A stretch of DNA of 64,000 bases from an uncultured Candidatus Saccharibacteria bacterium (GTDB lineage Bacteria > Patescibacteriota > WWE3 > UBA101185 > UBA10185). The number at the start of each line of letters is the position of its first letter. Position 1 is the first letter of the stretch. A program made the translations under genes and the position numbers. Shown piece after piece: positions 1 through 10,096 of the stretch. The stretch is taken from contig CAZTQT010000003.1 in NCBI GenBank assembly GCA_964615625.1, forward strand, positions 4,379 to 68,378, read 5' to 3'. A model generated the notes under the pieces. It searched no databases, had not been told where the DNA came from, and saw nothing but the letters and a program-made list of their open reading frames with translations.

Positions 1-1535
1 CCAATTAGTTTTTCTGATAAGTCTATACATGATGTTATAGCAGGAAGGGTTATAAAAACCTCGTGTCTCTTTTCAATATCTTCAGCTTTCTCTTCCAATA
101 TACTTATAGTATCTTCTCTTGAATTTTCCTCAATTTTCACTATATGAAAAAGTCTAGATATTGCTTCATTCGGTTCTATATATTTTCTATAATTTGATAT
201 GGAAATAGCTCCTATAAGTCGTATTCTCTGTCTTGATATATGGCTTTCTAAAACTGACAGTACTGTTGAGTTATAACCCCCTTCTTCGCCCATTCCCGTA
301 ATGAGATTTTGGATCTCATCAATGAAAAGTATTATATCTCCGGATCCTTCTGCTTCTTCTAAAGCCAAAGATACTTTATCTGAAACATTTCCCGAATCTT
401 TGTTCTCAGAAGTTAGGAGACCTACATTTATACTAACCATCCTTTTATTTCTTAGAGTTTTATGTTCAGTTCCTGTCATTATTTCGTAAGCTATGCCGTT
501 TATTATAGATGTTTTACCAACTCCAGATTCTCCTATCATTAAGATATCATTCTTCTCACTATCTAATATATCTGCAATTTGTTTTATTTCTAAATCCCTT
601 CCTATAACATTTTTAACTTGCCCTCTTTTCACTTGTTTTGTTATATCTACAGAAATTTTGTCTAAATTTGGTGTTACTCTACCCAACATTCCCTTTCCTA
701 TCCCTCCAGAAGGAGGTTTTCTGTACCCATCTTGCCATATATATTGTTTTTCCTTATTTTCTTTTTGATTTACTATCCAAAAAGCAGACTTCTCTATAAT
801 GTCAAAATTTGAGTTAAATATTAAAAGTAGTGTGTTTATATTTGGTATATTTTCTACTATTGCTATAAAAAGATGTTCTAACTCAACATATCTTGAAGAG
901 TTAGTTTTAGCTTTCTCAAAACTACTCCCTACTATGTCGTCAATTTTGGGATTTTGTGCGTTAAGTATTTTTTCCTCAAATTCTGGAATATCTAGCTCAC
1001 ACTTTTTAAGTAAATGTTTTATTTGCTCATCTTTAAAAAGTTCAAGAAGAATTAATCTTGTATCTTTGTTCGTGTTTTTTAATATATAGGCCGGTTTAGG
1101 TCTGAAAGACTTTATTTTTGATTGTTGTGTGGATATTTGTGAGATTTTTTTGGATGGTTTATCTAAGTTTATGTATACAAATACCAAGTATAGAAAAATA
1201 AAATAAAGTATTACATAAATAAGGGAGGATGATTTAAAAATAAAAAATGGAATGGCGATCCATATTATAGGAGATATTATTAGTGCTATTACGGCAAAGA
1301 ACATTAATATCATTCCTATAAAAATCATGAATATTCTAGTAAAAAAACTGACCATTCTACCTGTGAAGTTAGTTAAACCAAAAAGTGGGACAAAAAGAAG
1401 CCTTATGTTGTCAGTAAAGGAAATTGTATTGTCAAAACCAGATAAAAGTATTCCACCAACTTTAGTTATTTTCAACGGTGTTTTTACCAACCACCAATAT
1501 AAGAATTTGTGAGGAGGTTTTACGTAATAAGGCAT
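1..1535 (-). CDS. Membrane-anchored Clp/Hsp100-family AAA+ ATPase (partial; C-terminus outside window)
   Basis: Translated the minus strand by hand; the frame is open from the ATG at 1535 down to position 1 with no stop, and it is missing from the ORF track because it is open at the window edge. N-terminal ~140 aa are strongly hydrophobic (about 4 predicted TM helices, e.g. FGLTNFTGRMVSFFTRIFMIFIGMILMFFAVIALIISPIIWIAIPFFIF). Then a Clp_N-like repeat (VELEHLFIAIVEN). Then the AAA-1 region: NVIGRDLEIKQIADIL...NDILMIGESGVGKTSIINGIAYEI (Walker A) and DIILFIDEIQ (Walker B), typical of ClpA/B/C. Start codon is uncertain (1535, or an internal Met such as 1355). Confidence 0.6.
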   Translation of the reverse strand, partial: MPYYVKPPHKFLYWWLVKTPLKITKVGGILLSGFDNTISFTDNIRLLFVPLFGLTNFTGRMVSFFTRIFMIFIGMILMFFAVIALIISPIIWIAIPFFIFKSSSLIYVILYFIFLYLVFVYINLDKPSKKISQISTQQSKIKSFRPKPAYILKNTNKDTRLILLELFKDEQIKHLLKKCELDIPEFEEKILNAQNPKIDDIVGSSFEKAKTNSSRYVELEHLFIAIVENIPNINTLLLIFNSNFDIIEKSAFWIVNQKENKEKQYIWQDGYRKPPSGGIGKGMLGRVTPNLDKISVDITKQVKRGQVKNVIGRDLEIKQIADILDSEKNDILMIGESGVGKTSIINGIAYEIMTGTEHKTLRNKRMVSINVGLLTSENKDSGNVSDKVSLALEEAEGSGDIILFIDEIQNLITGMGEEGGYNSTVLSVLESHISRQRIRLIGAISISNYRKYIEPNEAISRLFHIVKIEENSREDTISILEEKAEDIEKRHEVFITLPAITSCIDLSEKLI

Positions 1536-1574
1536 TAAGAAAAGAATAACAGAAATAAAAGGAATAGGGTATAT

Positions 1575-2027
1575 TTAAAGATTTATTCCCTTAAAAATTA
1601 CTCCAGATATAAAGCCTAACAAAATTGAAATTATGAAAAAAAGTTTGTTTTTATTAAAAACTACAATTCCTAGGTATGGGATTGATGCTATCACTTTTCC
1701 TATAATCTCCTTTTCTGAAATTGGTTGGGGATCTTTTTCTTCGTTATTATCACCCTTAGTATAAAAAAAGTATTGACCGTGTGTAAAAGATATATCTGTT
1801 ATTCTGTGAGTTATTATCGGACCTTTGTTGTTCTGTTTATAAGAGATAATGTCACCTATTTTTAAAGTTTTAGGTTTTTTTACTATTACAAGTGAGTTTA
1901 ATTTTAAACTTGGGGACATAGATGATGAAGATATTTTATAGATTTTTATATTTAATTTGAGAATAATCAATAATATTATTAATGTAGGTATTATCAAAAA
2001 TAGGGAAGTGGATAGAACTTTTCTCAT
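1575..2027 (-). CDS. Type I signal peptidase, SipW/archaeal-ER type (S26B)
   Basis: 150 aa with an N-terminal TM segment, a catalytic Ser box (SSSMSPSL), a His box (ITHRI), a GDNN box and a C-terminal TM anchor. This architecture is typical of SipW/Sec11-type peptidases rather than LepB. Confidence 0.75.
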   Translation of the reverse strand: MRKVLSTSLFLIIPTLIILLIILKLNIKIYKISSSSMSPSLKLNSLVIVKKPKTLKIGDIISYKQNNKGPIITHRITDISFTHGQYFFYTKGDNNEEKDPQPISEKEIIGKVIASIPYLGIVVFNKNKLFFIISILLGFISGVIFKGINL

Positions 2028-2061
2028 ATTGTTTTTTTAAGTTTAAATTTTAATAACATGC

Positions 2062-2089
2062 TCCGCGGCGGGCTAAAGCCCGCCGCGGA
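2062..2089 (-). terminator. Perfect 11-bp GC stem-loop (ccgcggcgggc-taaa-gcccgccgcgg) between the TasA-like gene and the sipW-like gene
   Basis: It is the only GC-rich stretch in an AT-rich spacer. On the minus strand it is followed by a U/A-rich tract. It lies 3' of the 2108..2695 gene and 5' of the signal peptidase gene, so it could be an intra-operon attenuator or terminator. Confidence 0.4.
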
Positions 2090-2107
2090 AGCCTGAGTTT
2101 TAACAAA

Positions 2108-2695
2108 TTACATTTGTATAGCATTAAACTCAAAATCAAACGTTGCAGCAGCTCCCTGTTTTGTAGCACTTATATTAGGCGTAGAAAATCTCAATATTAG
2201 CTCCATAGTTTGTCCATGGTTAAGTTCTCCTAAACTAAATCCTTCAGTTTTCCACTTAATAAATGATTTCTGCCCCAAGCTGAGTCCTTCTTCACCTGGA
2301 TCCACTATTCCGTTTTGGTTTGTATCTGCCCATTTTATTATTTCAACCATTATGTCTGATCTTAGGTCTTTAGGATCATTCACGGTTTCGTAGTAAGCTT
2401 TAGAGGTTATACCTATTTTTGATGTTGCCATACTTATTAGTTTTATAAGATAGTCTTGTTGCCAACCAGGTCCTAGATTATCAAAACTTGGTCCTGGAAG
2501 CCCGTCTCTGTAGTTTGCTGGATCTGTTCCCATTGATAAAGATTCTAAAAACATTAAATTAGCACTACCTACACTAAAAGTAGATCCAGCAACCTTTGCT
2601 TGGTCGGTAAAAGCAGAGTAGGTTATACCTGCTAATAGAGATATTGTTACAATGGCTAAGCCTATTATATATGGTATTTTCTTTTTCATAATCAC
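2108..2695 (-). CDS. Secreted TasA/camelysin-like (peptidase M73 family) protein with a SipW-cognate-type signal peptide
   Basis: 195 aa. N-terminal signal/TM (KKKIPYIIGLAIVTISLLAG) is followed by SAFTDQAKVAGSTFSVGSANL, which matches the AYFSD.E......F.AGTLDL signature of TasA/CalY. The C-terminal strand ATFDFEFNAIQ resembles the TasA C-terminus. The gene is adjacent to the SipW-type peptidase. Confidence 0.6.
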   Translation of the reverse strand: MIMKKKIPYIIGLAIVTISLLAGITYSAFTDQAKVAGSTFSVGSANLMFLESLSMGTDPANYRDGLPGPSFDNLGPGWQQDYLIKLISMATSKIGITSKAYYETVNDPKDLRSDIMVEIIKWADTNQNGIVDPGEEGLSLGQKSFIKWKTEGFSLGELNHGQTMELILRFSTPNISATKQGAAATFDFEFNAIQM

Positions 2696-9406: not shown

Positions 9407-10096
9407 ATGACTATATTTGATGAGCTCAGAATGCCTAAAGTTATATGTGACGTTGAATCTGAGCTTAATGGTAGGATACGTGTTGTAGATGTTGGAAGAA
9501 CAAGAAAAATAGTTGTAGATAATATTATTCAATCTCTTAATCCAGATTCCCCAGCTTGTGGAAGACTGGTTTGGGGACAGTTGACAGACAAGCTAAAAGA
9601 AAATATGCCTGAAGCTGAGAAGGTTTTGATACTTGGCATGGGTGGTGGCACCATGGCCAGTTTAATATCAAGAAAGTTTCCTAATATAGATATAACAAGT
9701 GTTGAATATGACCCTGTTATGGTAGATGTTGCAAAGAAATTTTTTAATGTGGAGTCAATTCCGAACCATAAGATTATAGTTGCAGATGCCTTGCGTGTAG
9801 TGATAGAACCAGAGTCATACGACATGATCCCCAGCGGTTTTGATGTTTTAGTTGTTGATATTTTTAATGGTGAGAAATATCCAGATTTAGGGAAAACTGG
9901 TAATTTTATAGCTGCAGTAAAAAGGTTGGTTAGAGGAGGGGGTCTTGTTGTATTTAATAGGATATATACGGAACCTAATCAAGAAGATGTCAATATTTTC
10001 ATGGATAATTTAGAGGGTTATTTTTCTGATGTTAGTTATGAGGTAGTTGCAGGGTATACGAACTCTGACAATATTATTATCTTTGGGAGAGTTTAA
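9407..10096 (+). CDS. Spermidine synthase-like SAM-dependent methyltransferase-fold protein
   Basis: KVLILGMGGGTMASL...ITSVEYDPVMVDVAKKFF...IIVADALRVV resembles the polyamine aminopropyltransferase core. Confidence 0.5.
   Translation: MTIFDELRMPKVICDVESELNGRIRVVDVGRTRKIVVDNIIQSLNPDSPACGRLVWGQLTDKLKENMPEAEKVLILGMGGGTMASLISRKFPNIDITSVEYDPVMVDVAKKFFNVESIPNHKIIVADALRVVIEPESYDMIPSGFDVLVVDIFNGEKYPDLGKTGNFIAAVKRLVRGGGLVVFNRIYTEPNQEDVNIFMDNLEGYFSDVSYEVVAGYTNSDNIIIFGRV

Follow-up and report, generated by a model that had tools for sequence, protein, structure and literature searches.

The DNA analysed here is a 64,000-nucleotide stretch of contig CAZTQT010000003.1 (assembly GCA_964615625.1) from an uncultured Candidatus Saccharibacteria bacterium that GTDB places in WWE3, and this whole stretch is what we call the window. 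Its left edge carries the 5′ part of a gene, hereafter TM-Clp, whose product joins an N-terminal transmembrane (TM) region to a Clp/Hsp100-type ATPase, and which a sequence-only reading of the window had described as one uninterrupted minus-strand frame from the ATG at 1535 to the window edge. Retranslation gave exactly this, with 511 codons and no stop across positions 1–1535 (ATG at 1535–1533; nearest in-frame stop on the 5′ side at 1577, minus strand), and a stop-free frame of this length is not expected by chance because the window is only 33% G+C. The open reading frame runs off the window inside the lid of the first AAA+ ring (D1), and full-length orthologs are about 857 residues long, including two of exactly 857 residues that are 92% (P0001) and 85% (P0002) identical to the window protein and a further one at 91% (L007).

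Within the N-terminal part, 19-residue Kyte-Doolittle windows exceed 1.6 only within aa 59–126, and an AlphaFold2 model of aa 1–292 built on 37 family sequences (predicted local distance difference test, pLDDT, 90.8; predicted template modelling score, pTM, 0.81) places helices at residues 8–38 and 40–45, a continuous helix at 57–102 and a last one at 105–123. Across the 37 family members, lysine plus arginine number 8.1 per sequence in aa 1–67, 0.14 in the loop at 102–104 and 5.1 in aa 124–145. Because hydropathy, modelled helices and charge bias concur, and because the AAA+ part has to lie in the cytoplasm, a single topology fits, in which both termini would be inside and the chain would make two membrane passes. 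A predicted cytoplasmic segment (aa 1–56; 1368–1535, minus strand, as for every feature of this gene), assigned from the model and from conservation and holding helices 8–38 and 40–45, would precede a first pass at aa 68–101 (1233–1334) within the long helix and a second at aa 105–123 (1167–1223) that would bring the chain back to the cytoplasm and into a lysine-rich stretch. The first 56 residues are K/R-rich (6.2 per sequence) and partly amphipathic, with a helical hydrophobic moment of up to 1.09. Residues 1–140 had been read from the sequence as mostly hydrophobic with at least four helices, a description that has to be revised to two passes behind a cytoplasmic segment of about 55 residues. 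P50, R67, G74, W267 and G278 are invariant in the aligned family, and neither of the feature types that had been raised for the TM region is conserved there: screening across the family returned no conserved GxxxG, and a rhomboid- or CAAX-protease-like identity was rejected, there being no conserved His, Glu, Ser or Asp in the membrane part.

Following the membrane passes is an eight-helix domain resembling the Clp N-domain (aa 140–262; 750–1118), modelled at pLDDT above 90, which is plain by fold and faint by sequence. Pfam Clp_N just reaches its cutoff (20.7 bits) and does so for a single repeat, and only the second repeat (RYVELEHLF, aa 215–223) can be recognised in the sequence; among the 50 matches listed by Foldseek for this domain against the PDB, all were N-domains of the Clp/Hsp100 family (probability about 1, TMt about 0.5, E about 0.02), and on the predicted fold we take a Clp N-domain to be present. 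A family-specific, Gly-rich linker (aa 263–292; 660–749) then reads WQDGY.....GGIGKGMLGRVTPNLD, with W267 and G278 as its invariant positions, and is predicted to be a loop at pLDDT of about 60–70, also in the full-length model. The large subdomain of AAA-1, that is D1 (126–659), was delimited by Pfam, alignments and motifs and holds GRDLEIKQI, Walker A GESGVGKT (aa 335–342; 510–533), Walker B DIILFIDEIQ (aa 400–409; 309–338), a sensor-1 region (aa 440–452) and one Arg of the ERRF finger pair (AISRLF, aa 458–463). Pfam AAA covers aa 331–462 (E 4.6e-10), AAA_lid_9 at aa 472–510 marks the start of the D1 lid (3–125) where the window edge cuts it, and the NCBIfam models for ClpV, ClpB and ClpA match aa ~190–511 at E values of 1e-39 to 1e-45, such that the Clp_N-like repeat and the AAA-1 module with both Walker motifs, as first described, are all in place.

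The orthologs complete the protein with a second ring (D2). Pfam finds AAA, AAA_lid_9, AAA_2 (E 6.9e-49) and ClpB_D2-small (E 4.8e-18) in P0001, and the ortholog D2 carries G.TGVGKT, L(I/L)DEIEKA, TSN as sensor-1, LNRF as Arg finger and GARP as sensor-2; D2 motifs are intact in all Candidate Phyla Radiation (CPR) members that were compared, and D1 motifs are intact in the window's own family. The PDB sequences that best match P0001 come from S. aureus (ClpC, 6em9, E 2.5e-126), T. thermophilus (ClpB) and B. subtilis (ClpC), with alignments that all begin near residue 286, and in Foldseek a full-length AlphaFold2 model (pLDDT 82.7) overlays protomers of ClpC and of ClpB at TMt of about 0.8 over about 570 columns. 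By its motifs the protein would be an active ATPase; it is a class-I (two-ring) Hsp100 specific to CPR/Patescibacteria, and it fits no named Hsp100 subfamily, since every NCBIfam score lies below half its cutoff (ClpB TIGR03346, 525 of 1232 bits; PRK10865, 434 of 1417; ClpA TIGR02639, 460 of 993; ClpV TIGR03345, 440 of 885).

That the membrane domain and the ATPase form a genuine fusion is strongly supported. Searching 5.8 billion proteins with the 511-residue query yielded about 95 clusters from WWE3 and Microgenomates, 852–860 residues long, that span 100% of the query at identities down to ~28% and carry database labels such as 'ClpC', 'ClpA', 'AAA family ATPase' or 'hypothetical', whereas ordinary ClpC/ClpB matches span only ~62% of it. 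These full-coverage matches fall into tiers of 92% (P0001), 85% (P0002), 58–50%, ~40% (named WWE3 or Patescibacteria) and ~28–30% identity (Daviesbacteria). Scanning GTDB species genomes located the gene at 31 loci, nearly all WWE3 and including the complete genome CP006914.1, a count that understates Microgenomates because the 8-sequence alignment used for the scan recovers WWE3 only. No ortholog in the family lacks the hydrophobic region, no stop or frameshift interrupts the frame at about 1110–1260, and orthologs at 52–92% identity are colinear through the junction of TM region and N-domain (nt 1090–1260) without any indel or frameshift being needed. Codons 1–140 are under purifying selection, with nonsynonymous divergence (dN) of 0.069 and synonymous divergence (dS) of 0.584 against L007, 0.064 and 0.633 against L001, and thus dN/dS of ~0.1. 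One locus (L037, 9977–13618) has its TM-Clp ortholog in a stop-to-stop frame of ~1,200 codons, which points to read-through into the next gene downstream, or else to a difference in the assembly or in a stop codon.

The start of the gene tells the same story. Methionines occur at aa 1, 61, 70, 75 and 78 and then not until 283, as had been noted for the interval between the TM and Clp_N regions, and the only other in-frame starts within codons 1–200 are TTG at 16, 21 and 117. No usable start thus exists across codons 118–282, and because of this a soluble product from a downstream start is ruled out. Seven nucleotides 5′ of the ATG lies an extended −10-like box, TGTTATTCT (1543–1551, minus strand), probably TM-Clp's own promoter, and a box of the form TGnTAT(T/C/G)CT ends 6–8 nt before the TM-Clp start in nearly all WWE3 loci (those outside the window being L001, L004, L005 and L008–L036). 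The strict pattern TGnTA[TC][TGA]CT, expected by chance at ~0.001 per slot, occurs at 22 of the 32 WWE3 loci, and a ...TATCCT variant accounts for 8 of the other 10; because it is conserved, this promoter-like box independently supports ATG 1535 as the start codon. No Shine-Dalgarno-like motif was found 5′ of this ATG (such motifs precede only 15 of the window's 53 ORFs), and the position of the box suggests a leaderless or near-leaderless mRNA, which would explain the missing Shine-Dalgarno sequence. Similar boxes stand 6–7 nt before starts at 9407, 37703 and 38615 (all plus strand), the last being a perfect TGTTATAAT.

The N-terminal membrane module (aa 5–105; 1221–1523) is homologous to a free-standing protein family of ~105–125 residues from Patescibacteria and Parcubacteria. 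Its motifs are LYWW..K.P (aa 12–20), NIRLLFVPLFG (aa 43–54) and GR...F..R (aa 59–67), together with G74, P89, W92 and P96 conserved in the long hydrophobic helix. An exhaustive HMMER search with a profile of aa 1–292 against 1.84 billion representatives returned 1059 proteins at E<1e-3, among them the fused forms of ~850 residues and many proteins of 104–157 residues that align to profile positions ~5–105 only. Against the profile these free-standing homologs reach E values of 1e-12 to 1e-24; they end just past the long helix and share WW(Y), LF.P[LM][FY]G[DQ], GR..(S/G)F..R and W..LP, and the window protein has the full set (WW..P, LF.P[LM][FY]G[DQ], GR...F..R and a long TM helix with W..P). 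A second search with an alignment of the small proteins collected 210 clusters, all unnamed or 'hypothetical protein', in which every organism named belongs to Patescibacteria, Parcubacteria or Liptonbacteria, and since some of the genes sit on contigs of up to 680 kb they are not fragments. Pfam and NCBIfam, run on the module and on its free-standing homologs, gave only noise (e.g., holin at E 0.33) and no covering model.

In Parcubacteria the module is a separate gene of ~115 codons, and in all seven contexts examined it lies directly 5′ of, and on the same strand as, a gene for a two-ring Clp of 829–924 residues, with boundaries that range from a 20-nt overlap to a 7-nt gap. These split-system Clps have N-terminal hydrophobic segments of their own and a linker, NRAWT.RPTPTLD, that is related to GKGMLGRVTPNLD of the fused form (also read GKGMLGRVTP.LD). 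They likewise have no M-domain, no ClpP loop and no D1 pore tyrosine, and all but one are without the D2 GYVG loop. Among the six sequenced split D1 rings five are degenerate, with Walker A reading GKE or Walker B reading LYIPD or LFIPN or similar, and the sixth (L038) has LYIDN at Walker B. Because the free-standing module gene pairs with a TM-Clp that shares the linker and the losses, the window gene is the fused, 'Rosetta-stone' form of a two-gene system widespread in CPR, and by its motifs the form in which D1 is still intact; on the same comparisons the pairing of module and TM-Clp appears both obligatory and ancient.

Beside the fused and split forms we observed a third architecture of membrane Clp in CPR (P0120, 894 aa; L038, 6365–9139), in which an N-terminal CxxC...CxxC zinc-ribbon-like segment precedes the TM helices; at L038 the free-standing module gene is still upstream and the Clp keeps its D2 pore-loop tyrosine (GAPPGYAG). 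A crude neighbour-joining tree, prone to long-branch effects and from which we do not claim monophyly of all CPR TM-Clps, grouped the fused forms together, set the split forms on a separate long branch and placed the zinc-ribbon forms (P0120 and L038) nearer to ClpB and ClpC. Around the free-standing module a UDG-family gene recurs directly 5′ (L040, 5419–5982; L041, 5371–5985; L043, 3322–3945; and the P0357 locus) and a family-X DNA polymerase (PolX with PHP domain) shortly downstream (L040–L042), and in WWE3 a UDG gene also lies ~5 kb downstream of TM-Clp (L001, 17724–18365). This recurrent UDG/PolX neighbourhood may be inherited synteny.

Seen against canonical Hsp100s, the family has lost several elements, as read concordantly from a MAFFT alignment with canonical ClpB and ClpC and from a HMMER alignment to S. 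aureus ClpC (6em9). The M-domain is absent, with 61 residues between LPDKA and VIGQ (61–64 across fused and split forms) where ClpC has 123 and ClpB 186–187, and canonical ClpC-type matches carry PF02151 and/or PF23569 while family members carry neither. Every member, fused or split, has a deletion where the ClpP-docking loop would be, with FAGFGG of 6em9 aligned to a gap; the only IGF triplets of L042 and L043 lie before D1 and not at the ClpP-loop position. At the D1 pore-loop-1 position (aa 374–387, LTSENKDSGNVSDK; 375–416) the tyrosine of KYRG is replaced by Asp, giving KDSG in the window protein and KESG in P0001; the change is shared across the family, and other members have polar or small residues there. 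In D2, GappGYVGhddgG becomes GspdG----dtsG through the loss of four residues, and what remains is a shorter, conserved G-S/A-P-D-G loop. Because its 'PDG' is kept in most of both the fused and the split subfamilies, the alignments indicate a selected feature and not decay, and the short polar loops look like an adaptation, be it another kind of grip, a wider channel or remodelling without threading.

The cost of these losses can be read from studied Hsp100s, in which activity and threading depend crucially on aromatic pore-loop residues, threading does not proceed without the AAA2 pore loop and Hsp70 uses the M-domain as its platform (PMC8129007). Judged by these missing elements, docking to ClpP in the known way and coupling to DnaK or MecA through an M-domain would both be impossible, and the canonical grip on substrate would be gone. 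The description of the protein as a Clp 'unfoldase' accordingly divides, with the Clp-type ATPase upheld and the unfolding activity doubtful given that both pore-loop tyrosines, the ClpP loop and the M-domain are missing.

Taking the anchor, the dedicated module and the losses together, we lean towards TM-Clp being a membrane-tethered, ATP-driven remodeller that is independent of ClpP and Hsp70 and works with a non-canonical channel. In such a machine six protomers would assemble into a double ring, whose twelve TM helices would hold the face formed by N-domains and D1 against the cytoplasmic side of the membrane, with the module as dedicated anchor or adaptor. ATP hydrolysis in both rings would then perform conformational work on a client embedded in or associated with the membrane, with no hand-over to ClpP and no switching by DnaK or MecA-type adaptors. 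Without aromatic paddles a polypeptide would not be gripped in the canonical manner, and membrane-bound proteins would most likely be remodelled, taken apart or extracted, either by way of a wider, polar channel or without threading at all. The gene's housekeeping setting in all WWE3 genomes, amid a ribosomal-protein/rpoA cluster, RF-2 and FtsK, is in keeping with this reading.

Several points weigh against it. Hexamer formation, ATPase activity and membrane insertion are deduced, the TM assignment draws on hydropathy, charge bias and AlphaFold2 and not on a dedicated topology predictor, and D2 lies beyond the window such that its features come from orthologs P0001 and L007. Translocation is still conceivable with pore loops that are not aromatic, and the split-system Clp at L038 keeps GAPPGYAG in D2, from which some relatives may still thread. 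The survey for ClpP and canonical ClpB/ClpC covers the window and the fetched loci, as opposed to whole WWE3 genomes, and at one Parcubacteria locus (L042, JBBTPY010000001.1) a ClpP gene (2337–2924, PF00574) stands two genes 5′ of the module/TM-Clp pair, with which unconventional coupling may exist, although that TM-Clp itself has no ClpP-docking loop.

These same observations bear on the best surviving alternative, in which TM-Clp would be a conventional threading ClpC or ClpB ortholog, tethered merely for localisation, whose other channel residues compensate for the lost tyrosines and which may feed ClpP or FtsH non-canonically. We regard this as unlikely, if still worth weighing. In its favour, the closest relatives by sequence and by structure are ClpC and ClpB, neither ring has lost its ATPase motifs in the WWE3 family, the D2 tyrosine survives in L038 and ClpP is near the pair in L042. 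The supplement of Méheust et al. 2019, with its columns as we interpret them, lists ClpX in 33 CPR and 918 non-CPR genomes, ClpP in 1327 CPR and 1000 non-CPR genomes, and a 'ClpC-type' family with zero predicted TM helices. With ClpX nearly absent while ClpP and the 'ClpC-type' family are common in CPR, some Clp ATPase must partner ClpP there. On the other side, both aromatic pore-loop residues are gone and the D2 loop is four residues shorter, where studied Hsp100s no longer thread once the AAA2 pore loop is lost (PMC8129007); the ClpP-docking loop is deleted in every member, no M-domain is left for Hsp70 coupling, scores fall far under every NCBIfam equivalog cutoff, and D1 is catalytically degenerate in the split forms.

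A bolder version of the remodelling idea would extend it to the whole lineage, with CPR bacteria sharing a two-component membrane machine, made of a small membrane protein and an Hsp100-derived double ring with short polar 'PDG' loops in place of those that grip polypeptide, that spends ATP to move or remodel cargo at or through the membrane without classical threading. We offer this as a speculative proposal with the odds well against it; if true, it would put the machine in a mechanistic class that is new among Hsp100s, with possible ties to the envelope or scavenging biology of ultra-small episymbionts.

Somewhat less probable again is a membrane-conduit motor, a reading by analogy in which the hexamer's 12–18 TM helices, plus the module, would form a pore or basket aligned with the widened, aromatic-free channel, and ATP cycles would drive cargo across the membrane or into it. 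Its candidate cargo would be bulky or not a polypeptide at all (a folded protein, lipid-linked material or a scavenged macromolecule), with Bcs1 and the Hsp101-EXP2 assembly of PTEX as the analogies. CPR bacteria depend on importing building blocks, the dedicated pairing of module and ATPase seems obligatory and ancient, the short polar pore loops are conserved and not decayed, and AlphaFold2 models the stretch between module and N-domain, both included, confidently and as a rigid unit (pTM 0.81), all of which would suit a conduit. Yet the TM helices have no conserved polar or charged lining, their only invariants being R67 at the cytoplasmic end and G74; the external loop of 2–3 residues leaves the protein without an extracellular domain, the surroundings show no conserved transporter-like partner, and the case for this reading is purely one of analogy.

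The neighbours of TM-Clp offer a further candidate for its role. Gene order in WWE3 is nearly invariant, running through a ribosomal-protein/rpoA cluster, a helix-turn-helix gene, RadC, a 195-residue secreted protein, signal peptidase I, TM-Clp, RF-2 and FtsK. In the window the signal peptidase (150 aa; 1575–2027, minus strand) is of the archaeal/SipW type (TIGR02228, 92.5 bits against a cutoff of 51.85), and its gene adjoins TM-Clp in about two thirds of WWE3 loci. The secreted protein, 'cog195' (2108–2695, minus strand), is strongly conserved in WWE3, has a signal peptide of the SipW-dependent type (...YSAFTDQAK; TIGR04088, 18.4 bits against a cutoff of 19) and lies just 5′ of TM-Clp, with at most the SipW gene between, in essentially all WWE3 loci. 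A profile of the protein, run against PDB sequences and Pfam, found no match beyond the signal peptide and none in the mature part. Between the cog195 stop (2108) and the signal peptidase start (2027) is a hairpin (2061–2090, minus strand) of 13 bp with 11 G-C pairs (−31.9 kcal/mol, z-score −4.8), conspicuous at a genomic G+C of 33%, that looks like a terminator or attenuator, and because such an element follows it, cog195 is suggested to be a separately, perhaps highly, expressed unit. As an aside, cog195 and the SipW-type peptidase may be a TasA-like system for secreted structural protein in WWE3; a preprint on the Pam pilus (10.64898/2026.03.03.709456), consulted for TasA- or SipW-like neighbours, has no Clp, AAA or signal peptidase and proved irrelevant.

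From this arrangement TM-Clp might be a dedicated factor for the SipW-type peptidase and cog195 in WWE3, for instance clearing or chaperoning precursors or signal-peptide remnants, an explanation that we consider improbable. The cog195-SipW-TM-Clp block is found in essentially all WWE3 loci, down to ~30% identity in the TM-Clp N-terminus, and both neighbours act at the membrane. Against this, the region from the ribosomal cluster through RadC and RF-2 to FtsK is wholly syntenic in WWE3, such that the adjacency may simply be inherited, and unrelated genes flank the Daviesbacteria orthologs as well as each of the seven split systems. The synteny of the whole region in WWE3, set beside the other neighbours of the Daviesbacteria and Parcubacteria homologs, argues for inheritance, and TM-Clp's own conserved promoter-like box and the strong GC-rich hairpin after cog195 argue against a functional operon. 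The weakest alternative, that an indel or a misassigned start merged a small membrane protein gene with a soluble Clp gene, could appeal to the module being truly a separate gene in other CPR lineages, and is effectively refuted by the same continuous frame in more than 30 independent assemblies and ~95 protein clusters, the uninterrupted and colinear junction, dN/dS of ~0.1 over codons 1–140, the want of a usable start in codons 118–282 and the conserved promoter box before ATG 1535; the first description of one fused gene, not two, therefore stands, with orthologs of the same architecture at those 31 loci.

Neither ClpP nor a second Clp turned up in the 64-kb window or the flanking DNA of the WWE3 loci, and among all fetched loci ClpP is encoded only at L042. 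About 6 kb downstream of TM-Clp, WWE3 genomes carry a conserved gene pair (L001, 18368–20370, minus strand; L004, 16616–18568) for a single-ring AAA protein of ~355 residues (AAA_2, AAA and Lon_lid, with no ClpX zinc finger) and a protein of ~310 residues without Pfam match, which may be another atypical AAA+ system.

Although Hsp100 proteins of this general kind are already known, a membrane-anchored form with a new module and with the canonical elements lost is apparently undescribed; our literature search found no description of a membrane-anchored Clp/Hsp100 in CPR or of the small module family, and, as most subscription journals lay outside it, this is not proof. Hsp100/Clp proteins are the textbook soluble threading machines, and the pore-loop tyrosines, M-domain and ClpP loop are treated as their functional core. 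A CPR clade has dispensed with these three features and acquired a membrane anchor and a dedicated partner module, under purifying selection, which makes it a natural experiment in what an Hsp100 double ring does without aromatic paddles. The radiation itself, by a published estimate, makes up 15–50% of bacterial diversity and has very small genomes, and the findings bear on the proteostasis and membrane biology of bacteria that largely do without ClpX. They also define a small membrane-protein family of at least 210 clusters whose function can be pursued now that its partner is known, and the fused WWE3 form, with intact D1 and D2 in one polypeptide, is the most tractable entry for biochemistry and cryo-EM.

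Comparison with known systems places the protein nearest to ClpC of B. subtilis, S. aureus and M. tuberculosis (ClpC1), with which it shares the two-ring plan, the Clp N-domain, AAA, AAA_lid_9, AAA_2 and ClpB_D2-small, ~35–39% identity over D1–D2 and the best PDB match in sequence (6em9) and in structure. ClpC, however, is soluble and has a short MecA-binding, UVR-like M-domain, a ClpP loop (FAGFGG in 6em9) and the tyrosines of KYRG and GYVG, all absent here. ClpB/Hsp104 likewise has two rings and no ClpP loop and provides the top NCBIfam score (TIGR03346, 525 bits), but it is cytosolic, with a coiled-coil M-domain of ~120 residues essential for Hsp70 coupling and aromatic pore loops essential for threading, whereas TM-Clp reaches less than half of the 1232-bit cutoff and has neither M-domain nor pore tyrosine. 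ClpA shares the lack of a long M-domain, and its model aligns to aa 290–848 in one stretch; it differs in its IGL loop for ClpP, in keeping both tyrosines and in not being membrane-integral. With ClpV (TssH) the common points are the missing ClpP loop and an N-domain presumably for target recognition, while ClpV retains the pore tyrosines, is not membrane-integral and belongs to type VI secretion clusters, of which no genes lie near TM-Clp loci.

Among membrane-anchored AAA+ machines, FtsH and the mitochondrial i/m-AAA proteases have in common with TM-Clp an N-terminal TM anchor and an AAA+ ring whose entry face is turned to the cytoplasmic side of the membrane, and FtsH-like membrane protein quality control is a working candidate for the role here. 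FtsH is built on one AAA ring of the classic clade, whose pore loop is aromatic, fused to an M41 metalloprotease, and has a periplasmic domain between its TM helices; TM-Clp, in contrast, has two Hsp100-type rings, no M41 or other peptidase domain and an external loop of 2–3 residues. Msp1/ATAD1 and Bcs1 have an N-terminal TM segment and no protease, Msp1 extracting membrane proteins and Bcs1 translocating folded protein without classical threading. TM-Clp shares this plan of a membrane-anchored AAA+ ATPase without a protease, and these are single-ring, eukaryotic or mitochondrial proteins of other AAA clades, with aromatic pore loops in Msp1 and no sequence kinship to the module. Plasmodium Hsp101 of PTEX and human CLPB/Skd3 are Hsp100 relatives active at a membrane or close to one and were among our PDB matches (6e10/6e11 and 7ttr); Hsp101 is itself soluble, attaches to the EXP2 pore through its D2 end and keeps the pore tyrosines, and Skd3 has one ring, ankyrin repeats and a hydrophobic stretch that is removed by processing.

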